DNA of 10,633 nt from a virus (taxonomy: Duplodnaviria > Heunggongvirae > Uroviricota > Caudoviricetes): the IMG/VR virus record IMGVR_UViG_2548876964_000002, one strand, 5' to 3'. This document shows positions 98-10,633 of the stretch, one piece after another. A program made the position numbers and the translations under genes. Below the pieces are notes generated by a model. The model searched no databases. It saw only the letters and a list, made by a program, of their open reading frames with translations, and had not been told where the DNA came from. Positions within the stretch are counted from its first letter, which is position 1; every line of letters begins with the position of its first letter.

Positions 98-1533
98 CAG
101 AATCCTCCTTTCTTCTTGGACTGCGGTTCCTCGCGTTCACGTCGGCGCATTTCAGCAGACTGTTGGTCTGTGTCATAAATAGCGCCATTTGCCTGAATGC
201 AATACACCGTGCCGGTATTGCCATGACGATTGAGACGAAGGATTAGTTCGGTTTCACCAGGTGGAACACTGTCATCAAAAGCACCTTCACGATGGATCCC
301 CACCCAATAATCGCAATCCTGTTCAATCTGCCCTGTATCTCGTGAGTCACTTGGTAATGGGCGTTTATTGGTTCGGCTTTCCAGTGCGCGGTTAAGTTGC
401 GTCAGAAGCACAACAACGCAATCAAGCTCTTTGGCAAGGTTCTTCAGTCCTTTGGTGATCATGCCGTAAGCAAGGTCGTTGCGATCGGCCTTCTCAGCGG
501 TCATTAGTGTCAGGTAATCGACCAGAATCATGCCAACACATCCTTTTTCTCGCTTGATTCGACGGCTTTCGCTGACGATTTGAGCCAGAGATAATCCCGG
601 CGTGTCGTCGATGTAAAGCATGTCGATTTCACTCAAGCGATTGGCTGTTTCGATCGCCCTGTTGAAGTCACCATCGTAATCACCCTGATAGCCGTCATCG
701 GCGTCATTTGTCGCCGGAAGGTAAAAAATATTCGGGTTAACACCAGACTTCTGCCCTACCAGTTTTTCCAGTATCTGATCACCTGGCATTTCAAGGCTGA
801 ACATCAGAGCGGGCTTTTTCTCATGCACTGCGCAATTGATTGCCATCTGGCTGTATAGCGTCGTTTTCCCCATCTTAGGGCGAGCGCCAATGACAAACAG
901 AGAGCCTTTCACCAGACCTTTCGGTGACAGCATCCTGTCCAGCGATGGGATCCCTGTGCTCATTCCCCGTTGTTCGCCTGATGGGTCAAATCGCTTCTCA
1001 AGGTCGCTAACCCAGTCTTCCATGACCTCGCCAAATGAGCGAAGGCCGCGACGCGATCCGGTTTTTGCATGGTCTGTCAGTTGCGTGAAAATCGCCTGAA
1101 TAGCTTCGTACTTCTGCGTCGCAGTCATTCCGTTGCGGGAATAGAGCAATTCCGTCGCTTCAGTCATGCGGTTGATGGCGTAGCGTTCCATTGCGGTTTC
1201 ACGAACCTGCATTGCATAGGCAACGATGTTTGCTGCGCTTGGCGTGTTCTTTGCGATCTCAGCGATATAAGCAAAACCGCCAACAGACACCGTTAACGAT
1301 TTACGCTCCAGTTCATCGAAAAGCGTCAGGCCATCTACTGGCTTTTGCTCCCGGTGCATTCTGGTTATTTCTTCGAAAAGGATTTTGTGTGGTCGGCTGT
1401 AAAATGAATCAGGCTTCAGCATCGCCAGAACTTTCTGGACGCGCTCACTGCTGTCATCATCCAGAAGCAATCCACCAATCACCGCCTGCTCTGCCTCGAT
1501 GCTATGGGGCGGCGCATAAAAATTATCGGTCAT
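97..1533 (-). CDS. DnaB-family replicative DNA helicase (phage replicative helicase in the lambda P position)
   Basis: Long minus-strand ORF with DnaB-like N-terminus (HSIEAEQAVIGGLLLD) and Walker A motif GARPKMGKTT. Preferred start is ATG at 1533 with GAGGG 8 nt upstream; an in-frame GTG at 1548 is the alternative. The 5' end overlaps the 3' end of the upstream initiator gene. Confidence 0.9.
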   Translation of the reverse strand: MTDNFYAPPHSIEAEQAVIGGLLLDDDSSERVQKVLAMLKPDSFYSRPHKILFEEITRMHREQKPVDGLTLFDELERKSLTVSVGGFAYIAEIAKNTPSAANIVAYAMQVRETAMERYAINRMTEATELLYSRNGMTATQKYEAIQAIFTQLTDHAKTGSRRGLRSFGEVMEDWVSDLEKRFDPSGEQRGMSTGIPSLDRMLSPKGLVKGSLFVIGARPKMGKTTLYSQMAINCAVHEKKPALMFSLEMPGDQILEKLVGQKSGVNPNIFYLPATNDADDGYQGDYDGDFNRAIETANRLSEIDMLYIDDTPGLSLAQIVSESRRIKREKGCVGMILVDYLTLMTAEKADRNDLAYGMITKGLKNLAKELDCVVVLLTQLNRALESRTNKRPLPSDSRDTGQIEQDCDYWVGIHREGAFDDSVPPGETELILRLNRHGNTGTVYCIQANGAIYDTDQQSAEMRRREREEPQSKKKGGF

Positions 1534-2422
1534 CGTGTTCACCCTCACGAACTTTCAGGTAGGTATTATCGTTAAGCAGGAAATCAAATCCCTTTTTGTG
1601 CCAGATAGTTCCGCGTTGATGGTTTGGACGCTCTTCGAACATCCATCGGCAATTTTCGCCTACGTAGCTCAAATAATTTCTCCAGTCCTGCATCGTGAAC
1701 CCATGCCCGTCAAGCTGGCGTGTTATCACTCCGGCTTTGCGCCAGAACGTTCGGATCTGGTTTTTACGCTTGTCATTCAGTGCGCGGATTCTTGGCGCTT
1801 CAGGAAGGATTTCGTGGTAAGCATCGACAACATCCTGACAGCTGACGGAAGGTTTTTTCTTGTCAGACTTTTTGTCTGCTGTGGCACTCTCTAATACGTC
1901 AGTATTAGAGATAATATTATTATATTCTTTATCTGTGGTAATTTGCTGGTAATCTGCTGGTACAGTATTGCTTACAGGCATTGGTATTGCTGGCTTTGAG
2001 GTGGTAATTTGCTGGTAATCTGCTGGTACAAAATTTGACTGATAATCGTCATATTTCTCTACCGAGAAAACTGAGAATTTACCGTGTGAAACCCAGTCAA
2101 TCATGCCGAGTTTTTTGAACTTTCTAAGCAGGTACTGAACGCGATCTGGTTTGAGTCCTGTTTCAAACGCCAGAGAGTTTCTACCGCCAAGTAGCTTCCC
2201 TCTGCCTACCAGAATTTCTCCTGCGTCAGTCATTACATACTCAGGCGTATGCTTTGTTTTGAGGATTAAGTGAACCCACAGATGCGCTGCTTCTGCGTCC
2301 TTGTAAAACGGCACATCCATAATTTTACGGTGCAGCAAGGCATACCCCTTACCGCTGCTTTGATGCGGTTGTTGTAGCCTTCTGGCCTCTCTGGCTTCGG
2401 CTAGATTAGATATGTTACTCAT
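1523..2422 (-). CDS. Replication initiation protein, lambda O-like, with the origin embedded in the coding sequence
   Basis: 299-aa ORF directly upstream of the helicase; AAGGAG Shine-Dalgarno 7-8 nt before the ATG. The middle of the ORF carries direct iterons that encode a repeated [10 protein letters not shown] peptide, as in lambda O where ori lies inside the gene. Confidence 0.8.
1895..2030. repeat. Candidate replication origin: AT-rich tract plus direct iterons
   Basis: Exact 30-bp direct repeat gtggtaatttgctggtaatctgctggtaca at 1935-1964 and 2001-2030. Each copy holds two sub-repeats of the form TAAT(T/C)TGCTGG, and a degenerate copy ggtattgctgg sits at 1982-1992. An AT-rich tract lies at 1895-1930, on the downstream side in the O reading direction. 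Confidence 0.7.
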
Positions 2423-2561
2423 GACCTTTCTCCTTCTGCATCAGCTTCACTTTTTCCAACTCAGCCCGGAATCGACCAGGCTGCTTGAAGCTGGACAGGA
2501 AGCGATCACGTAGTATGTGTTTGTGAATTTTGTCCTGGTAAGGACTGAGTTGTTTTGTCAT
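2415..2561 (-). CDS. Small hypothetical protein (48 aa) between cII and the O-like gene
   Basis: Not in the supplied ORF track (under its length cutoff). ATG at 2561 with AGGAG 5 nt upstream; stop TAA at 2417..2415 overlaps the O-like start. Translation: [48 protein letters not shown]. No family recognised. Confidence 0.4.
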
Positions 2562-2593
2562 AATTACTCCTGTGGATTGATCCAGTAATTCCC

Positions 2594-2890
2594 TCAGAAT
2601 TGCATATCAATTTGCTTAAAATCCTCGGTGGCAGCCGGGGATTTTTTCTTTGTGATTTCATCAAGCGCATACTTAAAAGCCCTGCTAATCGGACTGATGT
2701 CTGATGCCATTCCGAAAGCACACAAGACCGAAGCAATAAATCTCCAGTCCGTTCTGCTTATCTTCGATTCATGACAGCCAATCATCTTTGCCAGACCGCG
2801 CTGGGTAAGCGTTGACAGGTTGATGAGTAAATCTGTTTCTGCGCGATCAACGTCGCGCTGTGATAGTTTGCTGTAACTTGTTTGTTCCAT
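2594..2890 (-). CDS. cII: CII-like transcriptional activator
   Basis: 98-aa ORF immediately downstream of cro and nutR. C-terminal [18 protein letters not shown] parallels the recalled lambda CII tail KKRPAATERSEQIQMEF, and the central HTH region is similar in layout. Confidence 0.85.
2623..2650 (+). terminator. Rho-independent terminator antisense to the cII 3' end (oop-RNA-like)
   Basis: Stem cctcgg/ccgggg (one G-U pair), 6-nt loop, then attttttctt. It lies on the plus strand inside the 3' end of minus-strand cII, matching the placement of the lambda oop terminator. No convincing promoter was found upstream. Confidence 0.45.
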
Positions 2891-3031: not shown

Positions 3032-3247
3032 TTAAGCGGCTTTGTGTTCCGGCGGGAACACGTCATCAAGACTGACTTTTGCGCCTAACTTGTTTAGGCA
3101 CGCAACAAGAGCACGGCATGTTTTAAGGTCTGGGAAGCGACGACCAGATTCCCAATGTCCGATAGCTCCCTGTGTGCATCCAACTGCCTTAGCAAGTGTT
3201 GTTTGAGAGATATTCAGTGACTCTCGATATTTTCGTAGGTTGCTCAT
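3032..3247 (-). CDS. cro: Cro-like HTH repressor (71 aa)
   Basis: Divergent from cI and followed by nutR and cII. ATG at 3247 with GGAGG upstream; HTH motif QTTLAKAVGCTQGAIGHW. The ORF-track extension to 3418 is rejected because it runs through the promoter region. Confidence 0.8.
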   Translation of the reverse strand: MSNLRKYRESLNISQTTLAKAVGCTQGAIGHWESGRRFPDLKTCRALVACLNKLGAKVSLDDVFPPEHKAA

Positions 3248-3302: not shown

Positions 3303-3358
3303 ACAAAAAATACATCTTGTGCATGGATGATTTTAGTACAGAGCGTAATAATAAGGGT

Positions 3359-4018
3359 ATGAAAATGAAATGGTATGAACTGGCTAGATCCAGAATGAAA
3401 GAGCTCGGCATAACTCAAGAGAAGTTAGCCGAAGAGCTTGGTATGACGCAGGGTGGAATTGGTCACTGGTTGCGCGGATCTCGTCATCCATCTCTTGACG
3501 AGATTGGTGTGGTGTTTAAATACCTTGGTATTGATAACGTCTCATTCAACCACGACGGTACATTTTCACCTGTTGGCGAATACTCATCTGCCCCCGTTAA
3601 AAAACAATATGAGTACCCTGTTTTTTCTCATGTTCAGGCCGGTATGTTCTCGCCTGAGCTTAGAACCTTTACCAAAGGTGATGCGGAGAGATGGGTCAGC
3701 ACAACCAAAAAAGCCAGTGATTGTGCGTTTTGGCTTGAAGTTGAAGGTAATTCCATGACCGCGCCAACAGGATCCAAGCCAAGCTTTCCTGACGGGATGT
3801 TAATTCTCGTTGACCCTGAGCAGGCTGTTGAGCCAGGTGATTTCTGCATAGCCAGACTTGGTGGTGACGAGTTTACCTTCAAGAAACTGATCAGGGATAG
3901 CGGTCAGGTGTTCCTACAACCACTAAACCCGCAATATCCAATGATTCCATGCAATGATAGCTGTTCCGTAGTAGGGAAAGTTATCGCCAGCCAGTGGCCT
4001 GAAGAGACATTTAGTTAA
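3359..4018 (+). CDS. cI: CI-type prophage repressor with LexA/S24-like autocleavage domain
   Basis: C-terminal ~135 aa ([36 protein letters not shown]...[12 protein letters not shown]) matches the lambda CI C-terminal domain as recalled, almost residue for residue. N-terminal HTH ([22 protein letters not shown]) is unlike lambda. Start is ambiguous among ATGs at 3359, 3365 and 3317; 3359/3365 are favoured. Confidence 0.9.
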
Positions 4019-4144: not shown

Positions 4145-4173
4145 TTGACTCAGTAAAGTACACATCGTACTAT
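4145..4173 (+). promoter_or_regulatory. PL-like sigma70 promoter
   Basis: -35 TTGACT (4145-4150), 17-bp spacer, -10 TACTAT (4168-4173), in an AT-rich tract upstream of nutL and N. OL operators are presumed to overlap but were not defined. Confidence 0.65.
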
Positions 4174-4218
4174 TTAGCTATCAGCAGGAAGCTGGAAGCC
4201 AAACGGAACAGACTGGCA

Positions 4219-4265
4219 GGCTCTTTAAACAACGTCGAACACTCGACTACGTGGCTGAAAAGCCA
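4219..4265 (+). promoter_or_regulatory. nutL-like site (boxA plus hairpins)
   Basis: GGCTCTTTAAACAAC (boxA-like), hairpin GTCGAACACTCGAC, spacer TACG, then TGGCTGAAAAGCCA (5-bp stem, GAAA loop). Same tripartite layout as nutR. Confidence 0.6.
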
Positions 4266-4290
4266 GATCACCCAACCACATAAGCTGTGG

Positions 4291-4338
4291 GATGCAATGC
4301 CGAAGCAACCGTCTCAGGAGGGGCTTCGAGATTGCATC
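4291..4338 (+). other. Large imperfect hairpin in the N leader (candidate RNase III or translational-control element)
   Basis: gatgcaat (4291-4298) pairs with attgcatc (4331-4338) and cgaagc (4301-4306) pairs with gcttcg (4323-4328), leaving a 16-nt apical loop. Lies between nutL and the N Shine-Dalgarno; lambda has an RNase III-sensitive hairpin in the equivalent leader. Confidence 0.45.
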
Positions 4339-4363
4339 GCCAAAGTTTATTCGGGAGGAATCT

Positions 4364-4636
4364 ATGTCCAGAAAAACAGAATTTAAAGGAACCGCAGCTT
4401 CTCGCCGTAGAGCTCGTCGTGCAAATCTGCAAAGTCAGGAGGCGATCAGCTCCGACAAGCTACACAGGCCAACCCCTTCACGAGTGGTCTTGCAATGCAA
4501 GCGCAAACCAGCAATGAGAGCAGAAGTGATAACTCTGACAACGTTGACCAGAAAATATGAAGGTTCAACTTGTCTTCCGAACGTAGCCATTTACGCGGCA
4601 GGCTACCGGAAATCAAAACAACTGACGGCGAGATGA
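4364..4636 (+). CDS. N: N-like transcription antitermination protein (90 aa)
   Basis: First gene after PL and nutL; GGGAGG Shine-Dalgarno before the ATG at 4364. Arginine-rich motif near the N-terminus (TAASRRRARRANLQ), as in boxB-binding N proteins. The track's upstream start at 4292 falls inside the leader hairpin and is rejected. Confidence 0.75.
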   Translation: MSRKTEFKGTAASRRRARRANLQSQEAISSDKLHRPTPSRVVLQCKRKPAMRAEVITLTTLTRKYEGSTCLPNVAIYAAGYRKSKQLTAR

Positions 4637-5695: not shown

Positions 5696-5866
5696 ATGCA
5701 ACAGTTCGCTATTGCAGGGGCGGCATCGGTTCGCCCTTTCAACCCGATTTTATCGGTACAGCATTCACGAAAAAATATTTTAACCGGAGCAGACTTTAAA
5801 CAACCAAGAATGAAAAGCTTGCTCGAAAAGCTTTGGGATATTTTGAAACAACAAGGCCGCCCATGA
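5696..5866 (+). CDS. cIII: CIII-like protein (FtsH inhibitor, 56 aa)
   Basis: MQQFAIAG...LLEKLWDILKQQGRP parallels the recalled lambda CIII (MQYAIAG...LIDILNQPGVP). GAAGGAG Shine-Dalgarno before the ATG at 5696. The track's upstream start at 5591 spans the terminator and is rejected. Confidence 0.75.
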   Translation: MQQFAIAGAASVRPFNPILSVQHSRKNILTGADFKQPRMKSLLEKLWDILKQQGRP

Positions 5867-10168: not shown

Positions 10169-10248
10169 GGAGATGATTATGGTCTGTTCAACATTCAACC
10201 ATCTAACGTTACAGAAATACCAGCCAGACCCTGAAGATTTATGCTCAC

Positions 10249-10633
10249 TGAACCGCCCCGGAAATCCTGGAGACTAAACTCCCTGAGAAAGAGGTAAACA
10301 GGATGACTAAAAATACTCGTTTTTCCCCCGAAGTCCGTCAGCGGGCGATTCGTATGGTTCTGGAAAGTCAGGATGAATATGACTCACAGTGGGCGGCAAT
10401 TTGTTCCATTGCCCCAAAGATTGGCTGTACGCCGGAGACTCTGCGTGTCTGGGTTCGCCAGCATGAGCGGGATACCGGGGGCGGTGATGGTGGGCTCACC
10501 AGCGCTGAACGTCAGCGTCTGAAAGAGCTGGAACGTGAAAATCGTGAACTGCGCCGCAGTAACGATATCCTTCGCCAGGCTTCCGCTTATTTTGCGAAGG
10601 CGGAGTTCGACCGCCTCTGGAAAAAATGATGCC
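10249..10633 (+). mobile_element. IS3-family insertion sequence (IS629/IS1203-like), left end and OrfA; continues past the window
   Basis: Left terminus begins TGAACCGCCCCGG at 10249. OrfA follows, and ATGATGCC at 10626 matches the recalled IS629 OrfB start (MMP...) in the overlapping frame. Confidence 0.8.
10303..10629 (+). CDS. IS3-family transposase OrfA (HTH plus leucine-zipper subunit)
   Basis: 108-aa [25 protein letters not shown]...[35 protein letters not shown] matches IS629-type OrfA as recalled. Confidence 0.9.

Follow-up and report, generated by a model that had tools for sequence, protein, structure and literature searches.

The region between cII and the O-like initiator gene in the window (the whole 10,633-nt stretch of DNA that we analysed) is very probably the standard lambdoid junction of the form cII–tO/oop/pO–orf48–O, belonging to a prophage of EHEC O111 (E. 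coli) (Table 1). Neither the 48-codon open reading frame (ORF) nor the hairpin found in this region is a product of chance; both are kept across dozens of related loci. The presence of an oop cassette together with orf48 in the cII–O gap is already known from P22, HK022 and Shiga-toxin phages, the cII–oop–orf48–O arrangement having been described by Hayes (2012) and being annotated in the P22 record BK000583. As a discovery, the junction carries little weight, given that records of P22, HK022 and Stx phages have shown its layout for some two decades. The gene orf48 is widespread and under purifying selection, has the lysogeny activator on one side and the replication initiator on the other, and occurs in phages used as models (P22, HK022) as well as in Shiga-toxin phages of medical relevance.

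Table 1. Coordinates of the features at the cII–O junction of the window.
Feature	Position	Strand	Basis
O-like replication initiator, P22 gp18/HK022 O type	1523..2422	-	PHROG 345, E = 2e-87
orf48/O junction	2415..2435	-	read directly from the sequence
orf48, 48 aa	2415..2561	-	DUF2740; equivalent to HK022 Orf48, HK620 HkaW and VT2-Sakai H0097
Predicted pO	2536..2564	+	position of 'promoter oop' in P22 record BK000583
Conserved lambdoid linker, 33 bp, ACTGGATCAATCCACAGGAGTAATTATGACAAA	2554..2586	-	exact match, 0 expected by chance
Predicted oop-like antisense RNA, ~77 nt	2572..2648	+	homology to lambda oop; 5' end predicted
cII, 98 aa, lysogeny-establishment activator	2594..2890	-	Pfam Phage_CII, E = 5.4e-32; PHROG 191
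tO, intrinsic terminator of the oop-like RNA	2618..2650	+	within the last 55 nt of cII; terminator scan

Read from the sequence, the distance from the cII stop to the O ATG is 171 nt, compared with 32 nt in lambda (cII end at 38653, O start at 38686), in agreement with the original prediction of a gap of about 170 bp that exceeds the one in lambda. The same prediction placed in this gap an unannotated minus-strand ORF of 48 aa with a Shine–Dalgarno sequence and a stop overlapping the O start. The ORF, its Shine–Dalgarno sequence (AGGAG, 2571–2567, 5 nt ahead of the ATG) and the overlap are all present, but the word 'unannotated' was wrong: RefSeq lists the gene in the source genome as WP_000166207.1, 'DUF2740 family protein', and it is also annotated in the VT2-Sakai, P22, HK620 and HK022 records. 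The neighbouring cII appears in RefSeq as a CII family regulator. The overlap between orf48 and O spans 8 nt (ATGAGTAA, 2422–2415), with the orf48 stop codon TAA at 2417–2415 and the Shine–Dalgarno sequence of O (AAGGAG) at 2435–2430. At the other end of orf48, the 33-bp linker, which was described by Hayes (2012), covers the oop 5' end, the orf48 Shine–Dalgarno sequence and ATG, and the pO −10 element. Within the O-like gene, two direct repeats (1935–1969 and 2001–2035) form the ori iterons, and iterons are annotated in VT2-Sakai.

The product of orf48 matched the Pfam family PF10872 (DUF2740) over the whole profile (1–43 of 43) with a score of 99.4 bits (E = 8.9e-29; gathering threshold, 27 bits), as well as PHROG 1913 (E = 2.7e-28), while no NCBIfam model matched it. 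Orf48 is 100% identical to HK022 Orf48, HK620 HkaW and VT2-Sakai H0097, and 85% identical to P22 Orf48. The protein is basic (pI 10.1) and was modelled by AlphaFold2 as two helices (residues 7–23 and 28–44) separated by a turn (mean pLDDT, 80); fold searches with Orf48 returned generic helical matches only. A profile search among 1.84 billion proteins recovered 15 representatives at E ≤ 0.001, several of which were fragments or spurious, and it revealed no informative domain fusions, so that no functional clue came from this search. One of its matches (P0059) was an apparent read-through or mis-called cII–orf48 fusion. A candidate from Opitutales in the genome scan (L016) was dropped as a chance match within a 754-aa protein. 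In the literature on DUF2740, hkaW and orf48, we found no functional study of Orf48 and no proteomic or ribosome-profiling report of it, and in the P22 papers found orf48 appears only as a component of constructs. An equation of orf48 with gnarl1 (PMC12373910 and its bioRxiv version) was rejected as a coincidence of names, the number being a library number and the gene coming from lytic phages. The DUF2740 family also carries a spreading mis-annotation as 'tail protein'.

Comparison of homologous sequences indicates that orf48 is a real gene. In a small set of diverged DNA sequences (n = 8), pooled pN/pS was 0.41 in frame compared with 1.08 and 1.25 in the two shifted frames, with a value of 0.21 for codons 12–25 and pairwise dN/dS of 0.10–0.35. 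The length was 46–48 codons in all diverged homologues, and 15 residues, many of them charged, were invariant in homologues down to 58% identity. Conservation across relatives had been named beforehand as a check on the ORF, and the gene was found to be conserved and unbroken: the frame is open in 8/8 diverged homologues, and reading frame and gene order are kept down to 51–58% identity. Nearly all of 94 orf48 loci have CII upstream, a spacer of 32–35 nt and the 8-nt overlap downstream, an order and overlap that extend to an Erwinia phage at 58% identity, and the window is identical in arrangement. Synonymous diversity dropped from 0.59 in mid-gene to 0.32 where orf48 overlaps pO and to 0.16 where it overlaps O. 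The second codon is NCA in every case, which preserves the TG of the extended −10 element on the opposite strand.

The in-frame constraint, the invariant residues and the narrow range of lengths all argue against a reading in which the ORF is a translated leader only, encoding no functional protein and delivering ribosomes to the O start by coupling. The same is true of a divergent homologue (P0056) that lacks the GHE motif of the overlap yet keeps the core. We consider such a leader rather unlikely, although several observations are in its favour. Lambda, 933W and H-19B have no orf48, which makes the gene dispensable for the basic lambdoid programme, and in these phages the linker ATG itself opens O. 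At both ends of orf48, the DNA sequence is under constraint from other signals, pO and the ribosome-binding site of O. In HK97, the slot between cII/oop and a gp18-type O holds a 53-aa ORF (gp53), which likewise starts at the linker ATG and overlaps the O start; its beginning, MTK..YQ(D/E)K, is shared with Orf48 and encoded by the pO-bearing DNA, whereas the remaining protein is unrelated to Orf48 and belongs to no Pfam family, and gp53 overlaps O by 14 nt, where orf48 does so by 8. As a leader, the ORF might have been left behind when modules were shuffled, with translation starting at the conserved ribosome-binding site of the lambda type.

An identical Orf48 protein was found next to four oop/cII types and two unrelated initiator types, the latter with N-domains of the PF04492 and gp18 types. 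Orf48 moves between phages as a free-standing mosaic cassette flanked by two conserved linkers, so that its partner is most likely invariant (for example a host factor or the nucleic acid of the linker) and not a particular CII or O allele. The role of Orf48 is narrowed by this assortment independent of cII and O alleles and by the overlaps at both ends of the gene (pO and the O start), which together make a simple genetic test of orf48 worthwhile.

The genes downstream of the initiator might point to another role, that of a replication accessory factor for phages with their own helicase (a DnaB-like helicase or a Toprim–DnaB primase-helicase) and not a lambda-P-type loader. Where the downstream gene could be read (about 85 orf48 loci), the initiator is followed by one of these two helicase types, although the sampled loci are close relatives and not independent observations. 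Two of the phages without orf48, lambda and 933W, use the lambda P loader, and in linker-bearing loci of the lambda-P type the ATG directly opens a long O frame in at least 46 of 52. Orf48 would also be translationally coupled to the initiator, judging from the overlap. Nevertheless, we regard an accessory factor as quite unlikely. In one locus (L171), the genes after orf48 are a hybrid O, a lambda-type P and Ren; this locus, together with the identical Orf48 beside two unrelated initiators, weakens the claim that Orf48 occurs only with phage-encoded helicases. The identical Orf48 also counts against Orf48 contacting O specifically, and the helicase correlation is explicable by linkage of orf48 to O genes starting MSN.

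A CIII-like role for Orf48, in which it would stabilise CII by inhibiting the FtsH protease, was rejected as very unlikely. Lambda CIII, a 54-aa FtsH inhibitor, is likewise a small helical early protein of the lysis–lysogeny decision, and Orf48 is similar to it in size and predicted helical character, with an 'LRD...QPG' resemblance by eye; encoded beside cII, Orf48 would moreover be co-expressed with it from pR. However, lambda CIII is encoded in the pL operon and has no detectable homology to Orf48 (hhalign profile comparison, probability 1.3%), Pfam gave DUF2740 only, with no CIII match at E ≤ 0.01, and the window apparently has a CIII-like ORF of its own (5696–5866, by eye). P22 and HK022 also have their own c3/cIII genes, which counts against this role.

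On the plus strand, a terminator scan of the region revealed four terminator-like sites compared with 1.1 expected from shuffles, the strongest being tO, a 12-pair hairpin (2618–2645) followed by TTCTTT. An intrinsic plus-strand terminator within the 3' end of cII had been predicted, and the hairpin with its T run bears this out. Both were retained in 20/20 sequence variants examined, despite differing cII C-termini, and the stem was 95.5% paired over 11 diverse homologues, with three compensatory pairs, compared with 41–59% for slid partners. These compensatory changes make it highly improbable that the hairpin arose by chance or has a role in the cII message, with no antisense RNA ending there; the poor −35 element of the proposed promoter would fit this alternative, but four quite different hairpins occupy this one place, each followed by a T run that is found only on the antisense strand, and RNAs ending there have been sequenced in P22 and mapped in BTP1.

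The predicted oop-like RNA would be antisense to the 3' end of cII (2594–2648) and to the cII–orf48 spacer. Its sequence is identical to that of lambda oop at 58/77 positions in an ungapped alignment (75%), and the 79-nt RNA 2572–2650 folds with −30.2 kcal/mol (z = −4.6; 0/200 shuffles as good). The likeness to lambda oop extends to position, strand, the 32 nt that separate the cII stop from the following ATG, the predicted length of 77 nt, coverage of the last 55 nt of cII, a 5' stem-loop followed by a terminator hairpin, and a −10 element (CATAAT) overlapping the next ATG. The two differ in the −35 element, which is TGGTAA inside orf48 here compared with TTGAGT inside O in lambda, and in the 5' stem-loop, which pairs in another register here. 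The mapped 5' end of lambda oop (38675) corresponds to G2572 of the window, P22 oop reads (GAUUGAUCC) start at the equivalent of 2575, and it is by analogy with such phages that we infer the exact oop 5' end and the activity of pO in the O111 prophage. Oop RNAs have been detected experimentally in BTP1 and in P22, both of which carry orf48. In the P22 record BK000583, the annotated oop promoter spans the start of orf48 and the annotated oop terminator lies within c1, at positions equivalent to those in the window, while P22 differs in having its own oop body and terminator, a shorter RNA (63 nt observed) and another c1 allele. The signature of an oop-like antisense RNA that had been recognised in the sequence is thus upheld by identity to lambda oop, the P22 annotation and covariation of the stem. 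Rfam has no oop family and gave nothing but sub-threshold chance matches within 2350–2950, so there was no curated oop model to score against.

The predicted promoter pO consists of a −35 element (TGGTAA, 2536–2541), a 17-nt spacer, a TG at 2556–2557 and a −10 element (CATAAT, 2559–2564), and it spans codons 1–9 of orf48 on the opposite strand. The TG and −10 element are retained in nearly all variants and match the P22 annotation; the −35 element agrees at only 3/6 positions, which is why a generic consensus scan did not call this promoter. The oop-like RNA had also been expected to be antisense to the small ORF, a claim that fails on the predicted start (2572–2575), which lies upstream of the orf48 ATG (2561). 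Beginning 11–14 nt upstream of this ATG, the RNA would therefore not be antisense to the coding sequence, and the oop unit would overlap orf48 only through its promoter, in codons 1–9.

Taken together with lambda, these features suggest a mechanism in which pO, with its TG-extended −10 element, would fire leftward relative to the pR operon and give a transcript of ~77 nt, from ~2572 to ~2648, that stops at the hairpin inside cII. Lambda oop, 77 nt in length, is antisense to the cII 3' end, and it is reported to down-regulate cII in a manner dependent on RNase III (Krinke and Wulff, 1987). The oop-like RNA would similarly lower CII and push development towards lysis. A ribosome-binding site of the lambda type, used by O in lambda, would here be used by orf48, and the Shine–Dalgarno sequence of O itself would be carried by the last orf48 codons. 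With this sequence inside orf48 and the orf48 stop overlapping the O start, a message from pR would yield Orf48 and O together, presumably through translational coupling. The oop-like duplex would stop 1–4 nt short of the orf48 Shine–Dalgarno sequence, and we infer that it could also reduce the synthesis of Orf48 and O. A link between lysis–lysogeny control and replication, as put forward in the original prediction, is plausible in that the predicted oop 5' end abuts the orf48 ribosome-binding site, but it is not new, a connection between oop and replication having been discussed by Hayes (2012). In lambda, the geometry between oop and O is a matching one.

We further suggest, very tentatively and as a rather improbable reading, that the predicted two-helix, basic Orf48 is a trans-acting regulator that binds either the linker, which always accompanies it, as DNA or RNA, or an invariant host factor. 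Its targets in the linker could be the pO promoter as DNA, or the oop 5' end and the ribosome-binding sites of orf48 and O as RNA; a host target could be an invariant replication or RNA-decay factor. Such a regulator would fit the invariant Arg and Lys residues of Orf48, and also the way in which the gene assorts freely with all cII and O alleles. If so, Orf48 would tune oop output or O synthesis and link the lysis–lysogeny decision to the initiation of replication in the many phages with this gene (P22, HK022, HK620 and several Shiga-toxin phages).

The window shares its gene order and the 8-nt overlap between orf48 and the initiator with P22, HK022, HK620 and VT2-Sakai. Likeness is high to VT2-Sakai and the Stx1/Stx2 phages, with 98.6% DNA identity over the region of the window. 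The immunity region of the window, with its LexA-like repressor (231 aa), is unlike that of VT2-Sakai, and the window pairs it with an HK022-type cII/oop.

The 48-codon ORF between cII and the O-like initiator, together with the surrounding layout of cII, oop (the lambda-type antisense RNA against the cII 3' end), orf48 and O, is already known and already annotated. Whereas the original prediction called the ORF unannotated, RefSeq labels it 'DUF2740 family protein' in the source genome, and its product (Orf48, also known as HkaW or H0097) matches Pfam PF10872 with an E value of 8.9e-29. It is 100% identical to HK022 Orf48, HK620 HkaW, VT2-Sakai H0097 and the mEp043 and mEp235 proteins, with 85% identity to P22 Orf48 and 58% to ORF62 of Erwinia phage Midgardsormr38; the VT2-Sakai record annotates it as 'bacteriophage HK022 Orf48'. 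The window is 100% identical, across all 10,633 bases, to a prophage carried by E. coli O111:H8 chromosomes, and 651 bp around the cII-O junction are 98.6% identical to VT2-Sakai, the Stx1-converting phage and Stx2 II.

All sequence features originally listed are present in the window, where the lambdoid early-right operon is encoded on the minus strand. The cII-O spacer is expanded as claimed (171 nt separate the O ATG from the cII stop, versus 32 nt in lambda), and orf48 does have a Shine-Dalgarno (AGGAG) 5 nt from its ATG and a TAA lying inside the first codons of O, giving an 8-nt overlap, ATGAGTAA.

Coordinates of features in the window
Feature	Position	Strand
DnaB-like helicase	97-1533	-
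O-like initiator	1523-2422	-
35-nt direct repeat, two copies	1935-1969; 2001-2035	
orf48, 48-codon ORF	2415-2561	-
AAGGAG in last orf48 codons	2435-2430	
Predicted pO -35, TGGTAA	2536-2541	
33-bp linker	2554-2586	-
TG of extended -10	2556-2557	
orf48 codon 2	2556-2558	
Predicted pO -10, CATAAT	2559-2564	
orf48 Shine-Dalgarno, AGGAG	2571-2567	
Predicted oop-like RNA	2572 to about 2648	+
cII	2594-2890	-
tO hairpin	2618-2645	+
cro-like HTH gene	3032-3247	-
LexA-like repressor	3323-4018	+
Frameshifted (pseudogene) ORF	4164-4386	+
N-like antiterminator	4364-4636	
CIII-like ORF, 56 aa	5696-5866	+
Partial CDS of interrupted gene	10179-10250	+
IS1203, start	10303	+
ALIL frameshift pseudoknot	10584-10633	

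An oop-like intrinsic terminator within the cII 3' end had also been predicted, and the comparative evidence for this terminator, tO, is strong. A 12-pair hairpin followed by a T-rich tail lies within the last 55 nt of cII, and a 79-nt RNA spanning 2572-2650 has a predicted fold of -30.2 kcal/mol (z = -4.6). From 94 related loci we obtained 46 distinct versions of the region; on the antisense strand, all 20 versions examined have a GC-rich hairpin and then a T run, and the hairpins fall into at least four clearly distinct sequence types (HK022/window, lambda, HK620 and P22). Pairing in the stem reaches 95.5% across 11 diverse aligned sequences, with three pairs showing compensatory changes, and drops to 41-59% when the 3' partners are slid.

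The mapped 5' end of lambda oop (38675) aligns with G2572, and the resulting predicted RNA of 77 nt shows 75% gap-free identity to lambda oop. The -10 of its predicted promoter, pO, is the complement of the orf48 ATG and the three preceding bases, with a TG before it that makes an extended -10, while the placement of the -35 matches the P22 annotation, where it reads TGGTCA. A search of the window against Rfam returned no oop match because Rfam has no oop family. Transcript evidence is available for relatives with orf48: sequencing of P22 oop gave a 63-nt RNA with 5' end GAUUGAUCC (PMC13397905), which corresponds to window position 2575, and the transcriptome annotation of BTP1, a P22-like prophage, includes an OOP RNA (PMC7067206). 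In a 2025 review, OOP is listed for 'lambda and Stx phages' with a length of 77 nt. The predicted RNA runs through the spacer into the 3' end of cII, its 5' end stopping just short of the AGGAG. Its start lies upstream of the orf48 ATG, by 11 nt on the lambda homology and by 14 nt on the P22 reads, so it would not be antisense to the orf48 coding sequence, and overlap is limited to the promoter, which covers codons 1-9. Thus, the oop-like antisense RNA of the original interpretation is supported, but its proposed antisense relation to the small ORF is not.

Comparison of eight diverged DNA homologues with 51-92% protein identity (the window, P22, the Erwinia phage and prophages of Enterobacter, Citrobacter, Atlantibacter, Pseudescherichia and Biostraticola) indicates that the amino-acid sequence of Orf48 is under selection. 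The frame is open in all eight; pairwise dN/dS is 0.10-0.35 for well-diverged pairs; pooled pN/pS is 0.41 in frame (0.21 over codons 12-25) versus 1.08 and 1.25 when the frame is shifted; and 15 residues are invariant (K3, H13, K14, I16, R18, D19, R20, L22, Q27, R30, R32, E34, K39, H47 and E48). Synonymous diversity is 0.59 mid-gene, 0.32 in codons 1-11 and 0.16 in the last three codons, and these dips fit extra DNA-level constraints from pO and the O start. In a small case of a promoter constraining a codon, codon 2 is ACA, CCA, GCA or TCA in the diverged homologues, encoding T, P, A or S, respectively; the amino acid varies while CA stays fixed, and with it, on the complementary strand, the TG that extends the pO -10.

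The junction closely resembles those of known lambdoid phages. In lambda, 32 nt likewise separate the cII stop from the next ATG and are nearly identical in sequence, the CATAAT -10 overlaps the ATG exactly as in the window, and the oop-to-O geometry is exactly the oop-to-orf48 geometry seen here. The P22 record (BK000583) places 'terminator oop; similar to phage lambda' within the 3' end of c1 and 'promoter oop' across the orf48 start, followed by orf48 and gene 18 with an 8-nt overlap. A conserved 33-bp linker, ACTGGATCaATCcACAGGAGTaATTATGaCAAA, which spans the oop 5' end, Shine-Dalgarno, ATG and pO -10, was given by Hayes et al. (Hayes 2012) and occurs in the window without mismatch. Unlike the window, 933W, H-19B and lambda are without an ORF in this slot, whereas HK97 has an unrelated 53-aa ORF there (gp53; 1340-1501 of locus L097) that shares with Orf48 only MTK..YQEK, encoded by the pO-carrying DNA, overlaps the O start by 14 nt and belongs to no Pfam family.

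Upstream of orf48, a CII-family gene is found in 94/94 loci, with a spacer of 32-35 nt in 86, and the 8-nt overlap of the orf48 stop with the next gene's ATG recurs in nearly all of them. Downstream of orf48 comes one of two unrelated kinds of initiator: lambda-type O (PF04492) and then a Toprim/DnaB primase-helicase or, as in the window, the P22-gp18/HK022-O type and then a DnaB-like helicase. Both start with MSN, so the first O codons travel with the end of orf48. One and the same Orf48 protein occurs beside four cII/oop types, some with CII proteins only about 35% identical, crossed with both initiator types, which on comparative grounds identifies it as a free-standing mosaic cassette between two conserved linkers. 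Among 52 linker-carrying lambda-P-type loci, in at least 46 the linker ATG is itself the start of a long O reading frame. The single orf48 case (L171; 1631-3989 of IMGVR_UViG_2563366903_000025) has orf48, then a hybrid O with an MSNLATV-type N-terminus, lambda-type P and Ren, showing that the cassette is able to recombine into lambda-type replication modules. Given these 52 loci, L171 included, the association of orf48 with phage-encoded helicases is most simply explained by linkage rather than function. In four orf48-carrying viral contigs (L031, L035, L054 and L076), a 164-aa NUMOD4/HNH_3 homing-endonuclease-like gene separates lambda-type O from the next replication gene.

In relatives, oop RNA made from pO terminates at tO inside cII, and in lambda it pairs with the cII message, leading to RNase III cleavage, less CII and a shift towards lysis. 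By analogy, the same mechanism would operate in the O111 prophage. The pR message would be translated into Orf48 from the lambda-type ribosome-binding site, and ribosomes ending at the orf48 TAA would re-initiate at the overlapping O ATG, probably aided by the AAGGAG within the last orf48 codons, such that Orf48 and O are made together. Since the oop duplex would end 1-4 nt from the orf48 Shine-Dalgarno, it may also reduce synthesis of both proteins. This would be the suggested coupling of lysis-lysogeny control to replication initiation, which has the same standing here as for lambda O.

No paper found in our literature search addresses the function of Orf48/DUF2740. PHROG 1913 labels the family 'tail protein', as do several RefSeq phage records (P22 NC_002371, NC_008464, NC_019706 and others); this is almost certainly a propagated mis-annotation, since Orf48 is the 48-residue product of an early-operon gene. 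With a pI of 10.1 and a net charge of about +6, the protein is basic; it is predicted to form two helices, 7-23 and 28-44, connected by a conserved FKQPG turn (AlphaFold2, 17-sequence alignment; mean pLDDT 80). A profile search among 1.84 billion representative proteins yielded only 15 matches at E <= 0.001, including several fragments, repeat-protein artefacts or mis-called fusions, which points to a narrow family confined to lambdoid prophages of Enterobacterales. Because Orf48 assorts freely with all cII and O alleles and has invariant basic residues, we tentatively favor as its partner either a conserved host factor or the nucleic acid of the conserved linker, rather than CII or O. A CIII-like role was rejected (hhalign probability of 1.3% versus lambda CIII) and is also countered by the window's own apparent CIII-like ORF. 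That ORF, MQQFAIAG...SLLEKLWDILKQQGRP, resembles lambda CIII (MQYAIAG...LIDILNQPG) by eye; it has no Pfam match at E <= 0.01 and is labeled hypothetical in RefSeq.

Elsewhere in the window, the direct repeats inside the O-like gene are 94% identical, each contain GGTAAT..CTGCTGGTA sub-repeats and correspond to 'ori iteron 1/2' in the VT2-Sakai record, which places the replication origin within O, as in lambda. The N-like antiterminator gene (Pfam N_peptide, E 8e-32) has a frameshifted ORF immediately upstream of it, and a copy of IS1203 (IS3 family), with its ALIL frameshift pseudoknot, interrupts a prophage gene of which a partial CDS remains.
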